64,000 nt of DNA, from contig UQQL01000001.1 in assembly GCA_900543275.1 (NCBI GenBank), positions 39,674 through 103,673 of the forward strand. Direction: 5' to 3'. Source of the stretch: an uncultured Collinsella sp. GTDB lineage: Bacteria > Actinomycetota > Coriobacteriia > Coriobacteriales > Coriobacteriaceae. Below the pieces are notes generated by a model. It saw only the letters and a program-made list of their open reading frames with translations, had not been told where the DNA came from and made no database searches. How positions within the stretch are numbered: the stretch's first letter is position 1; every line of letters begins with the position of its first letter. Position numbers and translations under genes: made by a program. Shown here piece by piece: positions 5,820-58,277 of this stretch.

Positions 5820-5972
5820 ACATACCTCCAAGGCTCGATGTGATTCGAGCCCGCACCGCGCCATTCGGCCGGAACTCGTCTATTCATTCGGTCAAGTATA
5901 GCGCCCGGACGCCAAAACGTCCGAGCGCATCACAAACATATGCCAAACGGCACGCCCTTTTGGGGACAAAGA

Positions 5973-6287
5973 TTATGCAGCGGTGATCGAAATCTCCTGG
6001 TCGACGCCCAACAGCTGAACCACGCGCATCACCGGGGGCTGCACGTTGACGCAGCTAAAACGCTTACTATGATCAGCTGCGTGGTGTGCGGCGCCCACAA
6101 GCACGCCAATGCCCGTCGAATCGATGTAGCTCACCTGGGCAAAATCGAGCTCAACGGCCTCAGTGGGCTGCTCGAGCGCCAGGTCGATGGCATTGCGCAG
6201 GCTATCGGCGTTAGAGATATCGATCTCACCGGTCACCTTAATGGTGTAGAGCTCTGGCGTGGGGTTGGTAGAAATACCCAAATCCAT
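5973..6287 (-). CDS. STAS-domain anti-sigma factor antagonist-like protein
   Basis: SpoIIAA-like pattern (LDFAQVSYIDSTGIGVLV) and an AAAGGAG RBS. Confidence 0.7.
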   Translation of the reverse strand: MDLGISTNPTPELYTIKVTGEIDISNADSLRNAIDLALEQPTEAVELDFAQVSYIDSTGIGVLVGAAHHAADHSKRFSCVNVQPPVMRVVQLLGVDQEISITAA

Positions 6288-17767: not shown

Positions 17768-17925
17768 GTCGCACCAACAACCCAAACGCAACAAGGGGCT
17801 CCCCCGCCCATCAACGGGGGAGCCCCTACTCGTATCTATATATCAGCCCACCCGGCTCTCCAGATCAAAAAGCGGACGAGCAAAGCGACGTTCGTAAGCT
17901 GCAGGCCAAAACGCCACAAGGAAGA

Positions 17926-18040
17926 GGGCGCGCCGGGGGCTTTGGTCGATCGCGAGTTCCGCACGAGCCGGAGAGCACTTAATGTGCTCTCCGTGCGAGC
18001 AGGACTGTCCGAGCAGGCGACCAAAGCCCCCGGCGCGCCC
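17926..18040. repeat. perfect 23-bp inverted repeat flanking a 69-nt spacer with an inner 10-bp hairpin
   Basis: gggcgcgccgggggctttggtcg ... cgaccaaagcccccggcgcgccc, with inner ccggagagcac/gtgctctccg. Sits between the convergent manA and pcrA. Confidence 0.6.
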
Positions 18041-18054
18041 GGTCAACCTCGCAG

Positions 18055-20958
18055 TTAGGCATTCAGCTTGACGATCGGTGCAAAGCCCTTCATTAGCTTT
18101 TTGGTCTGGCCGGTCTTTTCGAACTGAACCTCGATCATGTCTCCAACGACCGAGATCACAGTGCCCGTGCCAAAGGTCTTGTGACTCACGGTATCGCCCG
18201 CGGCAAAGTCCTGCGATGCGCTGGCGCGATCGACCTTGCGCTCCACCGTCGGGGACACCTTAGATGACGGCTTTTTGGCTCGCGGCGCGCCCGACCCAAA
18301 GGTCGAGGCAACGCGGCCGGCATCGGGCGAGACCCCACGATGGCGCTCGGTACCATAGGTGCTGCCACCAAAGAAATCGTCGAAGCTCGACCCGCCGCGC
18401 GAACCGGAACCGCCGGTCGAGCGCGTATGCGAGCCAAACACCTTGCCGCCATACATGTCCGAGCCCATACCCGAGCCAAAGGTGCCGTGTCGGTCGCCAC
18501 GCTTCTCCCAACCCGTGCCCTCAAAACCGGCAGAACCGATACCGCTAAACTCGATGTCCTCAAACGGAATCTCGTTGAGGAAGCGCGAGCGCGGGTTGGC
18601 AGAGGTCGAGCCGTAGGTGCGGCGCGTAGCGGCGTAAGTCAAGAACAGGCGCTTGCGAGCACGCGTGATGGCGACGTAGGCCAAGCGACGCTCCTCCTCG
18701 AGCTTGCCCGGATCGTCACTACCGCCAAAGTCGTGCACGTGCGGGAAGATGCCTTCCTCCATGCCGGCCACGAACACCGCGGGGAACTCCAAGCCCTTGG
18801 CGGAGTGAATGGTCATCATGGTGATGGCATGCGTCTCGCCGGCCAGAGAATCCAAGTCGGAGCGCAGAGCCAGCCACTCCATGAGTGCAGGCAACGCCTT
18901 ACAGGTGAGCGGGCCGTAGGTGCGCTCGATCTCATCGGCATGCACGGCACCGGCGGGCAGCTCTGTCGGCGCGGCATACGCGTTGCCCGCGATGGCGGCG
19001 GCCAGAGCATCTTGCGGAGAAAGCGCCGGGGCGGCCAAACTATCGAGCGGATTGGAGCCCGCGGCGTCACGGGCGCCGACAAGCGCCTCAAACGAAGACG
19101 CGGGCGCAGACGGGCCAGGCTCGGGCGCAGGTGCGCTCACCACAACGGGCTCGGGCTCAGCGTCGGCAGGCACATCGGCAACACCGGCCGCACGCAGCTC
19201 TTCCAAGCTCTCGAGCGTGCCTTCGATATCCTCGTGCGTCTCCTCAAATTCCGCCGCAACGCCCAGGAATTCCTGGATGTTCTCGGCGCGGCTCTCGGAC
19301 TCCATGGTGCCCTCGGCGCGGAAGGCCTGCAGCAGGCCCGTCTTGTCGACAATCATCTCGACGACGTCCTTGAGCTCGCCGTCCATGCGCCGGCCCTCGC
19401 GCACCAGCGCCACAAAGCTCGACAGGCCGTTGCGCACCTTGGCGCTAAACATGCCCGTCTCGGCCGTCGCAATCTCACAGGCTTGGAAGAACGAGCAGCG
19501 GTTGTCGCGTGCCAGCTGCTCAATCTTTTGAATCGAGGTGGAGCCGATGCCGCGGCGCGGCGTGTTGATGACGCGCTTGACGCTCATCTCGTCGGCCGGG
19601 TTCACGATCATCTTGAGGTAGGCCATGACGTCGCGGATCTCGGCACGGTCGAAGAATCGCGTGCCGCCGACGACCTTGTAGGGCACGCCCGCGCGCAGGA
19701 ACATATCTTCGAGGATACGCGACTGGGCGTTGGTGCGATAGAACACGGCGATGTCGTCGTAGCTCGTGCCCTTGGAGTGCAGCTTTTCGATCTCGCCGGC
19801 AATCCAGCGGCCCTCGTCGCGCTCATCGCTCGCTTGGAAGGCCTGAATCTTCTCGCCATCGCCCTCGGCCGTAAACAGACGCTTGTCCTTGCGCTGCGAG
19901 TTGTGGCGAACAACGGCGTTGGCGGCGCTCAGGATGTGACCCGTGGAGCGATAGTTCTGCTCCAGCTTTACGGTCTTGCAGTTTTTAAAGTCCTTCTCAA
20001 AGTCCAGGATGTTGGTGATGTCGGCGCCGCGCCAGCTATAAATGGACTGGTCATCGTCGCCTACGACCATGAGGTTTTGGTACTTGGCGGCCAGCAGGTT
20101 GGCGATCTCGTACTGGACGTGGTTGGTGTCCTGATACTCGTCGACGCTAATGTAGCGGAAGCGCTCCTGGTACTTGTCGAGCACCTCGGGGCGGGTGCGC
20201 AGCAGCTCGAGCGTGCGCACGAGCAGGTCATCGAAGTCCATCGCGTTGGCGGCGCGCAGGCGACGCTCCAGCTCCATATAGACCTGTGCGGCCTTTTTAT
20301 CGTTGGGGCTATCGGCAGATTTGAGCATGTCCTCGGGCCCGATCATGGCGTTTTTGGCCGAACTGATCTTGCTGCGGATCATGTTGATGGGGAACTGCTT
20401 TTGCTCGATACCGAGTGCCTGCATAATGTCGCGCACCATGCGCTTGGAATCGTCGTCATCGTAGATGGTGAACTGACCGGTATAGCCCAGCAGGTCGGCG
20501 TCCTCGCGCAGCATGCGCACGCACATGGCATGGAAGGTGCACACCCACATGCCACGGGTACCGCTGGGAATAAGTGCCGCCAGACGCTCGCGCATCTCGG
20601 CCGCGGCCTTGTTGGTAAACGTGATGGCAAGGATCTGCCAGGGCTTAACACCCAGGTCGCCGAGCATATGGGCGATGCGGAAGGTCAAGACGCGGGTCTT
20701 GCCCGAGCCGGCGCCGGCAAGCACCAGCAACGGGCCCTCGGTGGTCAGAACTGCCTCGCGCTGGGCGGAATTAAGGCTGTCGATGTCGACGAGCGGCTTG
20801 GCGGGCTTGGGCGCCGGCGCGGGAGCGTCGTAGATGTCGAGCGGAACGAGCTCGGGCTCCGGCGCGGCGGGGGCAGTGTATGCATCGAGCGGCACGGGTT
20901 CCGGCGCGGGCGGCACGGCCGCGGCGGTGTTCTTTTCCCAGGGCAAGGGCTGGGTCAT
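18055..20958 (-). CDS. pcrA: ATP-dependent DNA helicase PcrA/UvrD with a long low-complexity insert and a C-terminal Tudor-like domain
   Basis: Walker A AGAGSGKTRVL and SF1 motifs. A Gly/Ser/Ala-rich region of about 250 aa precedes the C-terminus. GAGGAG RBS before the MTQPLPW start. Confidence 0.9.
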   Translation of the reverse strand: MTQPLPWEKNTAAAVPPAPEPVPLDAYTAPAAPEPELVPLDIYDAPAPAPKPAKPLVDIDSLNSAQREAVLTTEGPLLVLAGAGSGKTRVLTFRIAHMLGDLGVKPWQILAITFTNKAAAEMRERLAALIPSGTRGMWVCTFHAMCVRMLREDADLLGYTGQFTIYDDDDSKRMVRDIMQALGIEQKQFPINMIRSKISSAKNAMIGPEDMLKSADSPNDKKAAQVYMELERRLRAANAMDFDDLLVRTLELLRTRPEVLDKYQERFRYISVDEYQDTNHVQYEIANLLAAKYQNLMVVGDDDQSIYSWRGADITNILDFEKDFKNCKTVKLEQNYRSTGHILSAANAVVRHNSQRKDKRLFTAEGDGEKIQAFQASDERDEGRWIAGEIEKLHSKGTSYDDIAVFYRTNAQSRILEDMFLRAGVPYKVVGGTRFFDRAEIRDVMAYLKMIVNPADEMSVKRVINTPRRGIGSTSIQKIEQLARDNRCSFFQACEIATAETGMFSAKVRNGLSSFVALVREGRRMDGELKDVVEMIVDKTGLLQAFRAEGTMESESRAENIQEFLGVAAEFEETHEDIEGTLESLEELRAAGVADVPADAEPEPVVVSAPAPEPGPSAPASSFEALVGARDAAGSNPLDSLAAPALSPQDALAAAIAGNAYAAPTELPAGAVHADEIERTYGPLTCKALPALMEWLALRSDLDSLAGETHAITMMTIHSAKGLEFPAVFVAGMEEGIFPHVHDFGGSDDPGKLEEERRLAYVAITRARKRLFLTYAATRRTYGSTSANPRSRFLNEIPFEDIEFSGIGSAGFEGTGWEKRGDRHGTFGSGMGSDMYGGKVFGSHTRSTGGSGSRGGSSFDDFFGGSTYGTERHRGVSPDAGRVASTFGSGAPRAKKPSSKVSPTVERKVDRASASQDFAAGDTVSHKTFGTGTVISVVGDMIEVQFEKTGQTKKLMKGFAPIVKLNA

Positions 20959-21176
20959 GGGCGACTCCTCATCTGACGGACGGCGCGCCTGCGGGCAGCG
21001 CCATAGTTTGAGCCGTACCAGTATACCGAGCCGCGCGGACACCGACGCAAATCACACCACGACTCCGTGCGCCACCGTCAGGCCCGCCCCAGCGGATTTG
21101 GCGCAATGGGTTCAGGTTACTTTGCACCAATCTATTGACAATCACGAAACCGCCGATGTCATGGCAGCAGCAGCGA

Positions 21177-21276
21177 GCGGCGGCCAGAGCGAACAAATTG
21201 GCATGAAAAGAGGGCGGCATAGACCTTTTGGTCATGCCACCCTCTTTGAATGACAAGTTGTCGCTCTGGCCGCCGC
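21177..21276. repeat. nested inverted-repeat element (19-bp outer arms plus inner hairpin) between uppP and pcrA
   Basis: gcggcggccagagcgaacaa ... ttgtcgctctggccgccgc, with inner aaagagggcggcat/atgccaccctcttt. Confidence 0.5.
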
Positions 21277-21291
21277 GCAGCGTCAACCAAG

Positions 21292-22272
21292 TTACAGGCC
21301 GAGCATAGGCTCCAGAACGAAGAAGTACGCGAGCACCACGATGCCCAGGATGATGCGGTAGACGCCGAAGCACTTGAAGTCGTGACGGCGAACGAAGCCC
21401 ATGAGCCACTTGATGGCAATGAGCGACACCACAAAGGCGACGACGCAGCCCACGCCCAAGATGGCGATCTCGTTGGTGCCGAACGCGCCGCCCTTGATGA
21501 AGTACTTGACCAGCTTGAGCGCACTCGCGCCAAACATGACAGGGATGGCCAGGAAGAACGTGAACTTAGACGCCACCGAGCGCGTGCAGCCCAAAAGCAG
21601 GCCGCCGATGATGGTAGAACCGGAGCGAGACGTACCAGGCACCAGCGAAAGCACTTGGAAGCAGCCGATACCCAGCGCAGTCTTCCAGCTTAGATCCTCG
21701 AGCGTGGCGATGGAACCAAAGTCCAGATTCTCGTCATCGTCCTCATCCTCAGCGGTAGCCGTGGCGGGCGCCGCAAAGTGCGCACCGGCGGGACGTTCAC
21801 CCGACACCACAGCACGCGAACCAAACGAACCGGCAACGGCCATTTCCTCGCGCTTGCTCGCGCGCCAGTTCTCGATCACGATAAACAGCACGCCGTACAC
21901 GATGAGCGCCAGCGCCACGACGGGAGCATTGTAGAAATGCTCCTCCATCCAGTCGTTGAGCGGCAGGCCGATCGCCGCCGCAGGAATGCAACCGAGCACA
22001 ATCTTGCCCCACAGCACCCAGGTGTTGCGACGGCCCTCCTTGCCCTTGCTGGGCGAGAACGGATTGAGCTCATGGAAGAACAGCACACAGACGGCCAAAA
22101 TGGCGCCAAGCTGAATCACGACCAGGAACATGTTCCAGAACGTCTCGCTCACGTTCATCTTGACGAACTCGTCCACCAAGATCATGTGACCGGTCGACGA
22201 AACAGGCAGCCATTCGGTGATGCCCTCGACCAGGCCCATGAAGGCAGATTTTAAAAGCTCGATGATATCCAA
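21292..22272 (-). CDS. uppP: undecaprenyl-diphosphate phosphatase UppP/BacA with an acidic insertion
   Basis: GLVEGITEWLPVSSTGHM signature. TTG start after GAGGGGG. The 100-aa upstream extension in the track is not coding. Insert AEDEDDDENLDFG. Confidence 0.8.
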   Translation of the reverse strand: MDIIELLKSAFMGLVEGITEWLPVSSTGHMILVDEFVKMNVSETFWNMFLVVIQLGAILAVCVLFFHELNPFSPSKGKEGRRNTWVLWGKIVLGCIPAAAIGLPLNDWMEEHFYNAPVVALALIVYGVLFIVIENWRASKREEMAVAGSFGSRAVVSGERPAGAHFAAPATATAEDEDDDENLDFGSIATLEDLSWKTALGIGCFQVLSLVPGTSRSGSTIIGGLLLGCTRSVASKFTFFLAIPVMFGASALKLVKYFIKGGAFGTNEIAILGVGCVVAFVVSLIAIKWLMGFVRRHDFKCFGVYRIILGIVVLAYFFVLEPMLGL

Positions 22273-22958: not shown

Positions 22959-22974
22959 CGTTGCTCCCACCGGC

Positions 22975-23075
22975 CGCGGGGCCTGCGGGGTTTCCACGGG
23001 CACGTCCTCGCCGCGTTGCGGCTGCGGGATGTGCCCTTAGGAAACCCCTCCCGGCCCCGCGGCCTTCGCAGCCTT
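22975..23075. repeat. nested imperfect inverted repeat downstream of usp
   Basis: ccgcggggcctgcggggtttcc ... ggaaacccctcccggccccgcgg, with inner gggcacgtcc/ggatgtgccc. Confidence 0.4.
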
Positions 23076-23115
23076 ACTTCAGCGAGTTGGCTGATAAAAG
23101 ATAGCGTGCCGCCCC

Positions 23116-23185
23116 GTTTGGGGTGGCACGTTTTGTTTGGGGTGGCACGTTTTGTTTGGGCTGCACGTTTTTGTTTGGGTGGGCG
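23116..23185. repeat. tandem repeat, 19-bp unit x about 3.7 (gtttggggtggcacgtttt)
   Basis: Two identical units, a third with two substitutions, and a partial fourth, immediately 3' of the histidine kinase gene. Confidence 0.7.
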
Positions 23186-23198
23186 TCTGCCGCGTGCG

Positions 23199-24242
23199 TT
23201 ACTCGAAATATTGAAACTTATTCGTTGAAAACGCGAATGTTACGACGAAGCCTTCGCCGAGCTCGGATGCCGCGGTGACGTCGATGCCCATCTTGGAGCA
23301 CAGGCGCGCCACCAGGTAGAGGCCGATGCCCGTTGCGCGCTTGGTGGTGCGGCCGTTGTCGCCGGTAAAGCCCTTCTCGAACACGCGCGGCAGGTCGGCC
23401 GCGCTCACGCCGCAGCCGTTGTCCGCGACGGTGAGCTCGATGCGTTCGCTCGCCAAGCCCTCGTCCAGCAATGCGCCCGAAAACACGATCTTCGCGCCGT
23501 CCTCGCGCGCATATTTAATGCTGTTCTGAATGAGCTGACCCAGGATAAATTCGAGCCATTTTTCGTCGGTAAAGACCTCAAAGTCAAGGTTCTCGCACAC
23601 CGGAGCCACATGCGCCGCAATGAGCTCGCGCGCGTTGGCTTTAATCGCACCCGTCACCAAGGTCTTAAGATCCCAGCGGCGAATCAGGTAATCGCGCTCC
23701 ACGACTTCCGAGCGCGCATAGTACAGCGCCTGATCGATATAGCGCTCCACGCGGGCCAGCTCGCGACCCAGGTCATCCACGCGCGAGAGGTCACCTTCGC
23801 TGCCGTCCAGGTTTTCCAAAATCAGATGAGCTGCCGCCAGGGGCAGCTTGGCCTCGTGGACCCAGCTCTCGATATAGTCGCGATAGTCATCGGTCTGACG
23901 TCGGCCTTCGGCAACCTCGTCGCATGCCGCCTTGCCCACCCGGCACAGGACCTCGTACTCGAGCTCGCCCTCGGCATAGGTTGGGCATTGCACCATCTCC
24001 TGCACCCATGCGGGACTCTCGAGCTCCTCTGCCGCGCGCTCCAACTGACGCAGAAAACGGCGACGGCGAGCGTACTCGATCACGATGCCGAGCATACCGA
24101 AGATAAAGGACACGCCAACCGCCACGACCACGATAGAAACGGGTGCGCCGGCGACCGTCAGCACAAAGCAGCTCAGCAGCACGCCGCACGTCCACACGGC
24201 GACGGGAAGCAGTGCATCTTTAAAGAACTTGCCAAACGACAT
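23199..24242 (-). CDS. sensor histidine kinase, intramembrane-sensing type (two TM helices, no extracytoplasmic domain)
   Basis: N-terminal two TM helices, H-box VHEAKLPL, HATPase_c N/G boxes (NSIKYA, DNGCGV, GIGLYL). Confidence 0.85.
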   Translation of the reverse strand: MSFGKFFKDALLPVAVWTCGVLLSCFVLTVAGAPVSIVVVAVGVSFIFGMLGIVIEYARRRRFLRQLERAAEELESPAWVQEMVQCPTYAEGELEYEVLCRVGKAACDEVAEGRRQTDDYRDYIESWVHEAKLPLAAAHLILENLDGSEGDLSRVDDLGRELARVERYIDQALYYARSEVVERDYLIRRWDLKTLVTGAIKANARELIAAHVAPVCENLDFEVFTDEKWLEFILGQLIQNSIKYAREDGAKIVFSGALLDEGLASERIELTVADNGCGVSAADLPRVFEKGFTGDNGRTTKRATGIGLYLVARLCSKMGIDVTAASELGEGFVVTFAFSTNKFQYFE

Positions 24243-29446: not shown

Positions 29447-29482
29447 AAAAAGACGGCCCTCCAAACGGAGCAGCCGTCTTTT
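29447..29482 (-). terminator. rho-independent terminator of purH
   Basis: On the minus strand: aagacggctgctccgtttggagggccgtctt followed by TTTTT. Confidence 0.7.
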
Positions 29483-29558
29483 GCAGAGATTATTTTGACG
29501 ATATGGTCAGGCGACCGAACAGTTTAATGGGATAGAGAAACATCCCATTAAGGGTTTT

Positions 29559-29652
29559 CCAAGTGCCCGAGATTGCCCCGAAAGAGGAGCGCCGCGTACT
29601 AAATGTACGCAAGCGACGGTTTGAGGGGCAAGGTCGGGTGCTTGGGAAAGCC
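29559..29652 (-). ncRNA. candidate structured RNA element (family B copy A), 3' of purH
   Basis: About 85% identical to 57396..57488. It has three long-range helices with compensatory changes against copy B and an inner 6-bp hairpin GCGTAC/GTACGC whose extension uses U-G pairs only on the minus strand. Confidence 0.5.
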
Positions 29653-29653
29653 T

Positions 29654-31261
29654 CTAGTGCCTAAAATGTCTGGCTCCGGTGAAGACCATCGCAATACCAT
29701 GCTCGTTGCAGGCCTGGATGCTCTCGTCATCGCGCTTGGAGCCGCCGGGCTGGATGATGCAGGTCACGCCGTGCGCGGCAAGCACGTCGACGTTGTCGCG
29801 GAACGGGAAGAACGCGTCGCTTGCACAGGCAAAGCCGCCCTTCTCCACGCCCTCGCGCTCGCAGAAGTCCTCAGCACGCTCGCAGGCCAGCAACGCGGAA
29901 TCCACGCGGTTGGGCTGACCGGGGCCCATGCCAATGCCGGCCTTACCCTTGGAGACCAGGATGGCGTTGGACTTGACGCCCTTGCAGACCTTCCAGGCAA
30001 ACTCGAGCTCGGCCATCTCGGCGTCGGTGGGCTTACGGTCGGTGGGGAACGTAAAGGTCGCGGGGTCCTCGGTCACGTGGTCGACTTCCTGCACCAGCAT
30101 GCCGCCGTCGATGGAGCGCAGCTCCACATGGGCACCGTGGTCCACGCCGCCGGTAGCCAGCACGCGCAGGTTGGGGCGCTTGGCCATGCGCTCGAGCGCC
30201 TCATCGGTGTAGCTCGGGGCGATGATGACCTCGACGAACTGCTTGTTCTGATCGGCAAAGTGCTCAACCAGCTCAAAGGGAACCTCGCGGTTGCAGGCGA
30301 TGATGCCGCCGAAGGCGCTCTTGGGATCGCAGGCGAAGGCGCGGTCGTAGGCGGCCGTGATGTCCTCGGCAACGGCGGAACCGCAGGGGTTCTGATGCTT
30401 GAGGATCACGCAGGCCGGCTCGTCGAACTCGCGGACCAGGTTCCAAGCGGCATCGGCGTCCAGATAGTTGTTGTAGCTGAGCGGCTTGCCCTGGATCTGC
30501 TCGGAGCCCACGAGCGGGAACTGAGAGCTCGCGGTGTTCTCGCAGCCCTCGGCAAAGCGATAGACCGTGGCCTTCTGCTGCGGGTTCTCGCCATAGCGCA
30601 GGTCGTCGACCTTTTCCAGCGAGATCTCGAGCTTGGCAGAGGTGTCCGCCACGTCGCTTGCCTGGGCGGCAAGCCAACGGGAGATAGCCGTGTCGTAGGC
30701 GGCGGTGGTCTGGTAGACCTTCACCTGCAGGCGACGACGGGTGGAAAGCGTGGTGCAGCCACCGGTCTCGCGCATCTCGGCCAGGACGGCATCATAGTCG
30801 GCCGGGTCGGAGATGACGGTAACGCTCGCGGCGTTCTTGGCGGCAGAGCGCAACATGGAGGGGCCACCGATGTCGATGTGCTCGATGGCATCCGCAAAGG
30901 TGACCTCGGGGTTGGCGACGGTCTTCTCGAACTCGTACAGGTTGACGACGACCAAGTCGATCAGCTTAATGCCGTGCTGAGCGGCCTCCTGCATGTGCTG
31001 CTCGGAATCGCGGCGGGCCAGCAGCGCGCCGTGAACCTTGGGGTGCAGGGTCTTAACGCGGCCGTCCATCATCTCGGGATAGCCCGTGAACTCCTCGATG
31101 GGGGTTACGGGAACGCCCGCGTCCTCGATGGCACGAGCCGTGCCGCCCGTAGAGATGATCTCGACGCCAAAGTCATCGACCAGCGTCCGTGCGAAATCGA
31201 CGACGCCCGTTTTATCGGTAACCGAGATCAACGCGCGTGCGATCTTCACATCAGATCCCAT
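29654..31261 (-). CDS. purH: bifunctional AICAR transformylase / IMP cyclohydrolase
   Basis: MGS domain [10 protein letters not shown] and the AICARFT core, 535 aa; GGAGGA RBS. Confidence 0.95.
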
Positions 31262-57349: not shown

Positions 57350-57395
57350 TTCTCCCAAGTAATAACAGTAAGCCCCACAGGTCGGCGAGGGTTGT

Positions 57396-57488
57396 CCAGG
57401 TGCCGCAGGTTGCCGCGAAAGAGGAGCGACGCGTACTTTGGTACGCGAGCGACGGTTTGAGCGGCAAGATGCGGTGCCTGGGCAAGCC
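57396..57488 (-). ncRNA. candidate structured RNA element (family B copy B), between hisF and hisI
   Basis: Paralogous to 29559..29652. Covarying helices: CCAGG/CCTGG, CCGCA/TGCGG and TTGCCGC/GCGGCAA here, versus CCAAG/CTTGG, CCCGA/TCGGG and TTGCCCC/GGGGCAA in copy A. Confidence 0.5.
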
Positions 57489-57494
57489 GCAGCG

Positions 57495-58277
57495 CTAGAA
57501 GTCCAACCTGACAGGGATGCCCTGCGAGGCCATGTACTCCTTCACCTGGCGAATGCTGAAGGTTCCAAAGTGAAAGACGCTGGCCGCCAGTACGGCGTCG
57601 GCTTCGCCCTCGATCACGCCCTCGGCAAAATGCTCGAGCGTGCCCACGCCGCCGCTCGCGATGACGGGGATTGGCACCGCGCGCGCCACGGCGCGGGTGA
57701 GCGCCAGGTCAAAGCCAGCCTTGGTGCCGTCGCGATCCATACTGGTCAGCAGAATCTCGCCGGCGCCGCGACGAGCCGCCTCCTCGGCCCATGCCACTGC
57801 ATCGATACCCGTGGCGTTGCGGCCTCCTGCGGTAAAAACCTCCCACTTGTCGGCATCCGGCTGCCCAGGCAGGCCGACGCGCTTGGCATCGATCGCCACG
57901 ACCACGGCCTGGCTGCCAAACGCCGCGGCAGCTTGGCTGATCAGCGACGGGTCACGCACGGCGGCAGAGTTGAGCGATACCTTGTCGGCACCGGCCGCCA
58001 CCATGGTTCGCATGCCCGCCAGGTCGCGGAAACCGCCGCCCACGGTATAGGGAATAGCGAGCTCCTCGGCCGCGTGCGCCGCCATCTCGATGGTCGTCGC
58101 GCGGTTGTCGCTCGTAGCGGTAATGTCCAGGAAGACGACCTCGTCTGCACCCTCGCGGTCGTAGGCACGGGCAAGCTCCACCGGATCGCCCGCATCGCGC
58201 AGGCTCACAAAGTTGACGCCCTTGACCACACGGCCGTCCTTGACGTCTAGACAGGGAATCACGCGCTTGGTAAGCAT
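57495..58277 (-). CDS. hisF: imidazole glycerol phosphate synthase cyclase subunit
   Basis: Canonical HisF TIM barrel ([16 protein letters not shown]). Confidence 0.95.

Follow-up and report, generated by a model that had tools for sequence, protein, structure and literature searches.

The two similar elements that follow purH and hisF in the stretch of Collinsella DNA analyzed here (64,000 nucleotides, hereafter the window) belong to a family of dispersed imperfect palindromes that is found across the genus Collinsella (Coriobacteriia) and is chromosomal as far as seen. The stems of these palindromes covary, the copies lie just past the stop codons of unrelated genes, related genomes differ in the presence or absence of copies at orthologous sites, and copies at orthologous loci are constrained in place. 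What is unusual about this family is that it is locked to stop codons and evolves under constraint where it sits. The best explanation, which is on balance probable, is that a palindromic repeat has been kept at gene ends, where it would act in cis on the stability, processing or insulation of mRNA 3' ends and intercistronic regions. Given that many unrelated genes carry the element past their stop codon, it is a hairpin module of gene ends in general and not a sensor of AICAR; the tie to purine-histidine cross-talk had been proposed from two copies in the first-pass annotation of the window. The family appears to be undescribed in Collinsella, a genus that is abundant in the human gut.

The two copies had been placed at positions 29559-29652 and 57396-57488 of the minus strand, directly 3' of the stop codons of purH and hisF, and both are indeed present there, with offsets of 0 and 4 nt from the stops. 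Their sequences are highly similar, as had been stated, but the identity is 82% (77 of 94 positions in a global alignment) and not the roughly 85% given at the time. Two core patterns of 21 nt each match copies A and B and no other site in the window, and none of 100 shuffles gives two matches. Copy A, which is of the main type, spans 29549-29654 of the minus strand (covariance-model hit of 114.9 bits, together with the fold, the sequence and the pair columns) and starts on the G of the purH TAG stop codon (29654-29656, minus strand), the last base of the stop being the first base of the model hit. Copy B, also of the main type, spans 57386-57490 of the minus strand (covariance-model hit of 121.4 bits, fold and sequence) and starts 4 nt past the hisF TAG stop codon (57495-57497, minus strand), in the intercistronic spacer between hisF and hisI of a hisH-A-F-I-E operon. 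The upstream genes were identified by the Pfam domains AICARFT_IMPCHas (purH) and His_biosynth (hisF).

The minimum-energy folds of the minus strand correspond to the helices originally drawn, with 5 + 5 + 7 bp around GCGTAC/GTACGC, and have energies of -43.2 and -43.4 kcal/mol (z = -4.8 and -4.1) for copies A and B, respectively. The compensatory differences between the two copies are likewise as described. In copy A (minus strand throughout), helix P0 is formed by 29653-29646 and 29558-29551, and P1 by 29645-29641 and 29563-29559. A 2x2 loop CA:CA (29640-29639 / 29565-29564) separates P1 from P2 (29638-29634 / 29570-29566), and a second 2x2 loop (29633-29632 / 29572-29571) separates P2 from P3 (29631-29625 / 29579-29573). 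P3 encloses the 5' loop TCAAACCGTCGCTT (29624-29611), the apical hairpin GCGTAC-ATTTA-GTACGC (29610-29594), and the 3' loop GGCGCTCCTCTTTC (29593-29580). A protein-coding origin of the repeat was rejected: the element begins past intact native C-termini (PurH ends in ...ARHFRH), the loops of the two copies differ in length by 1 nt, and the variation is pairwise-compensatory. Two database proteins of 416-424 residues (P0014 and P0055), in which a His_biosynth domain is combined with a PRA-CH domain and which share 99% identity with the HisF of the window, could be HisF-HisI fusions or gene calls that run through the spacer holding the element.

The extent of the family was explored by scanning one genome per species with the pattern CAAACCGTCGC-N17-27-GCTCCTCTTTC, which contains a conserved core of 22 nt. 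This pattern matches at least 120 genomic stretches from at least about 110 assemblies, and among the matches listed nearly all source labels are Collinsella, while the few other labels look like mis-binned contigs. On two contigs (L097, CAVCRP010000006.1, and L100, CAVGCW010000002.1), the element and Collinsella-like flanks are found under bins named 'uncultured Ruminococcus sp.' and 'Alloprevotella sp.', respectively, labels that probably result from mis-binning. The flanking sequence sorts the listed matches into at least about 20 contexts. A covariance model (R1) was built from an alignment of 52 distinct copies (A3), with pairs counted on a hand-drawn structure; it recovers every copy and adds diverged ones. 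The covariance-model search, which had been suggested together with the initial description, does therefore yield further copies, and since these form a family, the count of two is superseded. One of them lies in the window itself: copy C, a diverged copy at 21173-21279 of the minus strand (39.6 bits, E = 2.4e-7; alignment A4), is located 12 nt past the TAA stop codon (21292-21294, minus strand) of a BacA/UppP gene (Pfam BacA) and has a fold of -80.1 kcal/mol (z = -12.6).

The core unit of about 105 nt is a long irregular hairpin in which P0, P1, the CA:CA loop, P2, the second 2x2 loop and P3 follow each other, with conserved TCAA and TTTC bulges and an apical module. Diverged copies retain the outer helices, the CTTG-NNNN / NNNN-CAA stem and the TCAA and TTTC bulges, and their apex, which has its own covariation (alignment A4), is fully paired as GGCATGACC-ARAA-GGTC-W-ATGCC. 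Copy C accordingly has the outer architecture and the TCAA / TTTC bulges of the main type and differs at the apex, which is a fully paired stem GGCATGACC-AAAA-GGTCTATGCC with the flanks GACGCTGCGC / GCTCGCTG. In a composite subfamily of about 190 nt, an extra covarying 5' hairpin GTTACGCGGTTTTACCAAACCGCGTAAC and conserved GACGCTGCGC / GCTCGCTGAC flanks are added to the unit. A DapA-like locus (L011, L014, L040, L041, L044, L062, L070, L082, L093 and L094) carries orthologous diverged copies in two haplotypes (GTGGTCGGGCGTGACC/... and CCGTGCGGCCATGACC/...), the 16-bp apical stems of which differ at many positions, all of them compensated, and which have the same loop and the same bulges.

Rfam gave no family match to the element, either in a search of the whole window at the gathering threshold or for copies A and B and one composite copy at E <= 10, where the noise consisted only of miRNA, CRISPR-DR and PhotoRC fragments. 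The Collinsella-1 RNA motif (RF01700) comes from the same genus, but its Rfam model matches no copy, even at E <= 10. Nothing relevant was found in the literature on Collinsella RNA motifs and palindromic repeats, and a search for the core sequence in text and in the supplements to a catalogue of structured RNAs from the human microbiome likewise gave nothing relevant.

The proposal that the structure is under selection is borne out by the larger set of copies. Across the 52 copies, 88% of the cells are paired and changes on both sides are found in 22 of the 25 outer pairs; none of 500 shuffles reaches the observed values, and slid controls are only 28-43% paired. Constraint in place is observed at orthologous loci. 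In seven of eight ortholog sets, each made of copies from different species, the diversity of the stems is 0.008-0.083, while in the same genomes the upstream gene has 0.11-0.18 at its third codon positions, which makes the stems 2-15 times less variable; the diversity of the adjacent spacers is 0.04-0.36. Given that the search pattern excluded the stems, this comparison is not biased by the manner in which the loci were collected. The exception among the eight sets is the amt locus, where whole stem haplotypes have been turned over. Most loci retain their own stem haplotype across species, and a few haplotypes are common to several loci. The near-invariance of the 22 core positions is built in, because the search pattern required them, and the apical positions that the pattern left free have a diversity of 0-0.11. 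Copies obtained as by-catch, and therefore outside the selection by the pattern, carry substitutions in the apical module, some of them uncompensated. Among single changes within orthologs, 20 of 35 break a sense-strand pair.

These observations bear on the possibility, to which a rather low probability is given, that the element is a regulatory tag, in which the apical module (UCAAACCGUCGCU / GCGUAC hairpin / CGCUCCUCUUUC), presented on a covarying stem, would bind one trans-acting protein or RNA and thereby co-regulate tens of mRNAs. In the main type, conservation is highest in the apical segment, which is carried by stems that covary, are constrained in place at orthologous loci and have a strongly biased orientation relative to the gene; single transitions within orthologs also lean toward G-U pairs on the sense strand (15 versus 7 on the antisense strand, a difference that is not significant). 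Nonetheless, 22 of the apical positions owe their invariance to the search pattern, so that only the others count, the incidentally caught copies show decay of the module, and the diverged members have a different apical stem that lacks such loops. The trans-acting factor is itself hypothetical. A related and similarly improbable reading is that the family is a domesticated 3'UTR module abutting the stop codon, the conserved apical platform of which is read by one trans-acting factor; if true, this would give Collinsella a post-transcriptional 'tag' common to tens of housekeeping mRNAs. An alternative of the same low probability is a mobile element that targets the nucleotide immediately past a stop codon.

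The position of the element relative to genes was determined at 32 representative loci, with genes called using a GC3 filter. At 27 of these, the element is preceded by a co-oriented gene of high GC3, the end of which lies at a distance of -12 to +14 nt, or of 38-43 nt where the 5' hairpin intervenes. The element is reversed at two loci, in both cases 13 nt past the stop, after a ROK kinase and after DnaJ, and three loci could not be judged. The orientation bias is therefore strong and not absolute. Downstream genes are co-directional or convergent and 4-220 nt away. The upstream genes are unrelated to each other: the 20 element-adjacent proteins scanned against Pfam belong to housekeeping genes, which include PurH, HisF, BacA/UppP, an ammonium transporter, IMP dehydrogenase, an ABC-F ATPase, CysS, PheS, a P-type ATPase, a GH1 glycosidase, two HGD-D dehydratase subunits, an ABC substrate-binding protein, an ABC permease, phosphoketolase, transketolase, PfkB and MoaC-MobB. 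The element is tied to no single pathway.

It had been suggested that the element is a cis-regulatory RNA or sRNA of purine-histidine cross-talk, which would sense AICAR/ZMP or respond to it and would be located at purH and hisF given that both enzymes act on this metabolite. These genes do precede two of the three window copies, the purine gene for IMP dehydrogenase precedes the element at one further locus, and the structure is under selection. This model is nonetheless very improbable, since at least about 20 other contexts have no purine or histidine link, the third copy in the window follows BacA/UppP, and the purH 3' end carries different subfamilies in different species. Close relatives have the same his operon without the element, at hisF-hisI junctions of 1-53 nt. 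The ZTP riboswitch (pfl motif) shares the metabolic theme, but neither it nor any other riboswitch matches the copies at E <= 10, as had been anticipated for ZTP, and the element lies 3' of genes and not in a 5' leader. Given that the upstream genes are unrelated, the connection to AICAR/ZMP is a coincidence of this window, and the false lead of an AICAR/ZMP-linked, riboswitch-like RNA at purH and hisF is removed. Two accompanying suggestions are likewise not supported. The stretch CUCCUCUUUC, taken for an anti-Shine-Dalgarno sequence, is absent from the diverged members, where the region is base-paired, and an independent sRNA finds no promoter-like or terminator-like site flanking the copies in the window.

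The copies are polymorphic between related genomes. At two junctions of an ABC-transporter operon (sites 9 and 10), filled and empty alleles are found among related genomes: the empty alleles have a TAATG gene overlap or a 7-nt spacer, and the filled ones an insertion of 152 nt or 190 nt that starts directly past the stop codon. A third allele in this operon looks like the remnant of an internal deletion. The hisF-hisI junction is filled in the window and in L125, and empty in the relatives L121-L124, with spacers of 1, 31 and 53 nt and HisF proteins that are 88-90% identical. The purH 3' end has the simple form in the window and the composite form in L055, where the ...ARHFRH C-terminus is the same. 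The genomes compared for an empty site at the HGD-D locus have different upstream genes, which makes this locus uninformative. No consistent target-site duplication was found between filled and empty junctions, and loci differ in where the outer boundary falls. Some copies are nested, in tandem or halved, and assemblies often break at the element. Transduced 3' tails were ruled out, given that the tails are locus-specific and found nowhere else.

Several individual loci illustrate these forms. The amt locus (L001, L004 and L085) has a truncated 5' half-copy GCACCTTGCCCTTCAAACCGTCGC fused straight to a full copy, L072 has a main-type and a diverged-type copy head to tail (5968-6176), and L027 has a full copy followed by a degenerate second one (2251-2424). 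In a comparison of L113 (3600-3680, minus strand) with L006 (4000-4140), L113 retains the 5' hairpin and the GACGCTGC...GCTGAC flanks and exactly lacks the long hairpin, which means either that the long hairpin was inserted as a module of its own or that palindromes can be cleanly deleted.

The presence and absence of copies, their nested, tandem and truncated forms and the precise loss of the long hairpin would also be expected of selfish mobile DNA. The hairpin would then matter only as single-stranded DNA during mobilization, as in REPIN/RAYT or IS200/IS605-PATE systems, and position and orientation would reflect the insertions that are tolerated. The identical stem haplotypes at different loci and the breaks in assemblies agree with this, as do the lack of target duplication, which is expected for elements moved by Y1 transposases, and the better hairpin of the G-rich strand, with its G-T and G-A pairs. 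However, most loci have locus-specific haplotypes that are kept across species with 2- to 15-fold less than the synonymous diversity, a pattern that does not agree with neutral relics. No transposase is among the 20 element-adjacent proteins that were searched for Pfam domains, and no copies were found in viral contigs. Purely selfish DNA is considered rather improbable.

A long G+C-rich hairpin at a gene end may also be a terminator, either an 'I-shaped' intrinsic terminator without a U-tract or a Rho-related signal. Actinobacteria have been reported to use terminators without U-tracts, and other long hairpins follow stop codons in the window. However, no copy is followed by a T-run, and a consensus scan finds no terminator at the elements. 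A canonical intrinsic terminator of the purH transcript, with a G+C-rich stem followed by UUUUU (29447-29482, minus strand; fold of -22.5 kcal/mol, z = -4.6), lies about 65 nt downstream of copy A, which places copy A within the purH 3'UTR, ahead of the terminator and distinct from it. A small extra hairpin UUAAUGGGAU...AUCCCAUUAA, predicted from the fold at 29524-29551 (minus strand) between copy A and this terminator, is found only at the purH locus and is outside the repeat. Copy B and the copies of the ABC operon split genes for which genomes that lack the element show tight coupling, and full termination at copy B would silence hisI and hisE. It is thus unlikely that the element is a terminator itself.

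The assignment of the RNA to the gene-sense strand had been based on a U-G extension of the inner hairpin, and this evidence is not kept across the family: the extension column has 24 C-G, 16 U-G and 12 other pairs, and the next pair is U-U in 30 copies and U-G in 19. Moreover, the antisense strand is the more stable one in all 52 main-type copies tested, with means of -49.5 kcal/mol for the sense and -63.9 kcal/mol for the antisense strand, about 14 kcal/mol apart; the plus-strand folds of copies A and B reach -55.7 and -62.1 kcal/mol. On the antisense strand, the CA:CA loop becomes tandem U-G/G-U and the UC:UC loops become tandem G-A pairs. Counts of G-U versus C-A lean to the sense strand in the inner stems and outer flanks, and to the antisense strand in the CA:CA and TCAA/TTTC loops and the P0/P1 stems. 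The evidence for the sense strand is that of position and orientation, with copy A between the purH stop and the terminator and copy B within the his operon. The mRNAs almost certainly contain the C-rich strand, and the functional form could be the other strand, as single-stranded DNA or antisense RNA.

The better folding of the plus strand of the window, with the conserved loops turned into tandem U-G and tandem G-A pairs, is what would be expected if the family were one of antisense RNAs or sRNAs made from that strand. Against this, there is no promoter-like site beside the three copies in the window, and the position is tied to the stop codon of the sense gene and not to any downstream feature. 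The sense strand of copy C is as stable as its antisense strand (-80.1 versus -78.8 kcal/mol), and in the composite form only the sense strand allows the outer flanks to pair through G-U. An opposite-strand RNA is regarded as quite improbable.

The gene-end explanation suggests the following course of events. The repeat would once have spread, and perhaps still spreads, to sites just past stop codons, with copies inserting directly 3' of the stop, inside operons or ahead of the real terminator. Transcription of the upstream gene would then extend through the element, which would be part of the message as a 3'UTR or intercistronic hairpin, and this stop-proximal hairpin may act in cis, like the REP/BIME and ERIC hairpins of enterobacteria. 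By analogy with these, it could block 3' exonucleases or serve as a point of processing or insulation, and the stop codon would stay intact in decay intermediates. The orientation may be kept by selection against the G-strand duplex in the message, because the opposite strand would introduce a nearly continuous duplex that is about 14 kcal/mol stronger, and which is plausibly a substrate of RNase III. The 3'-end formation in Actinobacteria is poorly understood. It is unusual for a repeat to be locked to stop codons, biased in orientation and several-fold slower in evolution than synonymous sites, and this combination makes the family a tractable case for how selfish palindromes become useful mRNA-end elements. 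The family also breaks assemblies, creates operon-spacer polymorphism between strains, and can pass for a regulatory RNA in comparative screens.

When compared with known repeats, the element can be placed in the broad class of dispersed, palindromic repeats of intergenic regions (REP/ERIC/MITE-like). It occurs at many unrelated loci, with three copies in 64 kb of the window alone, its arms are complementary across copies with most outer pairs changed on both sides, and it is present or absent at orthologous sites (sites 9 and 10 of the ABC operon and hisF-hisI). It does not fit the specific definitions of a REP/REPIN, a classical MITE, an integron attC site or an intrinsic terminator, the latter being a hairpin directly followed by a U-tract. 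The ERIC or IRU sequences of enterobacteria are imperfect palindromes of about 127 bp in transcribed intergenic regions. As ERIC is generally described, the two are alike in size, in the imperfect palindrome with its long RNA hairpin, in tens to hundreds of copies, in 3'UTR or intercistronic sites, in presence or absence between related genomes, and in having no transposase of their own. The Collinsella family differs from ERIC in sequence and phylum, in being locked to a distance of 0-14 nt from the stop codon and about 90% in one orientation, and in combining a conserved apical module with discrete base pairs that vary.

The REP/BIME elements are documented stabilizers of mRNA 3' ends, and REPINs are hairpins of about 100 nt. 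The REP/BIME and REPIN-RAYT systems of E. coli and Pseudomonas resemble the present family in being extragenic palindromes at gene ends with compensatory hairpin changes. A REP unit, however, has 20-40 nt and a conserved GTAG-like head, and a REPIN is an inverted doublet of REPs, while the Collinsella element has no head of the GTAG type and forms one hairpin of about 105 nt, the apex of which is conserved, and not a doublet of short REPs. No gene for a RAYT (Y1 transposase) is among the 20 element-adjacent genes scanned against Pfam. Its copies apparently number in the tens, versus hundreds for REP/REPIN. The MIRUs of Mycobacterium are operon-spacer repeats in one orientation that abut stop and start codons, and consist of tandem direct repeats with small ORFs. 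From what is known of MIRUs, the common features are the occurrence in Actinobacteria, in operon spacers, mainly in one orientation and touching the upstream stop codon; the Collinsella element differs in being a long hairpin, and the sequences are unrelated.

Like PATEs, which derive from IS200/IS605, and other MITEs such as Correia/NEMIS, the element is non-autonomous and rich in hairpins, and inserts without disrupting genes. As in PATEs, there is no target duplication, and the orientation is largely fixed (27 sense, two reversed), but there is no conserved target of 4-5 nt beyond the stop codon: the only common left flank is a TAA or TAG stop with a 0-14-nt spacer, and these stops are the genome-wide norm. 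The combination of terminal inverted repeats with target duplication that defines classical MITEs is lacking, and the outer boundary is variable. The neighbors are syntenic core genes (his operon, purH, tRNA synthetases), unlike the cassette ORFs that integron attC sites follow, and the ends of the element, by eye, do not fit the R''/R' core sites of attC (RYYYAAC...GTTRRRY).

The TAA/TAG stop codon was considered as an insertion target. All adjacent stops are TAA or TAG, but this is the norm throughout the genome, and the candidate was rejected because TGA makes up only 3.7% of stops overall. TGA ends two of the 41 GC3-filtered ORFs of the window and 22 of 593 (3.7%) in the window and loci L001-L120 taken together, while TAG is the commonest stop (53%). 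The G+C content of the window is 62%, and given that high-GC bacteria usually prefer TGA stops, its rarity here is unusual. Nonetheless, TGA does function as the hisF stop in L125.

Other long hairpins were observed in the window. An unrelated hairpin of about 115 nt (17926-18040, minus strand), with perfectly complementary outer arms of 23 nt (GGGCGCGCCGGGGGCTTTGGTCG...) and without the TCAA/TTTC signature, lies 14 nt past the TAA of a 999-codon ORF (18055-21051). Just downstream of it, at 17789-17842 (minus strand), Rfam reports 'Ref55, Enterococcus sRNA 55' with 46.9 bits versus a gathering threshold of 43; given that the DNA is from an actinobacterium, this match is probably a false positive of a terminator-like kind. 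Downstream of a gene ending at 23199, in the stretches 22972-23064 and 23100-23200 (minus strand), a unit of about 19 nt (CCCAAACAAAACGTGCCAC) is repeated three to four times in tandem, and after these repeats comes a further long G+C-rich hairpin, the arms of which have 22 nt. Long hairpins just past stop codons may therefore be a general feature of this genome, and given that unrelated hairpins share this location, the position of the Collinsella element may reflect the gene ends of this genome and not this family in particular. A palindrome with 29-nt arms is also found at 569-671, between convergent genes that end at 550 (plus strand) and 693 (minus strand), beside an A-tract/T-tract hairpin that resembles a bidirectional terminator.
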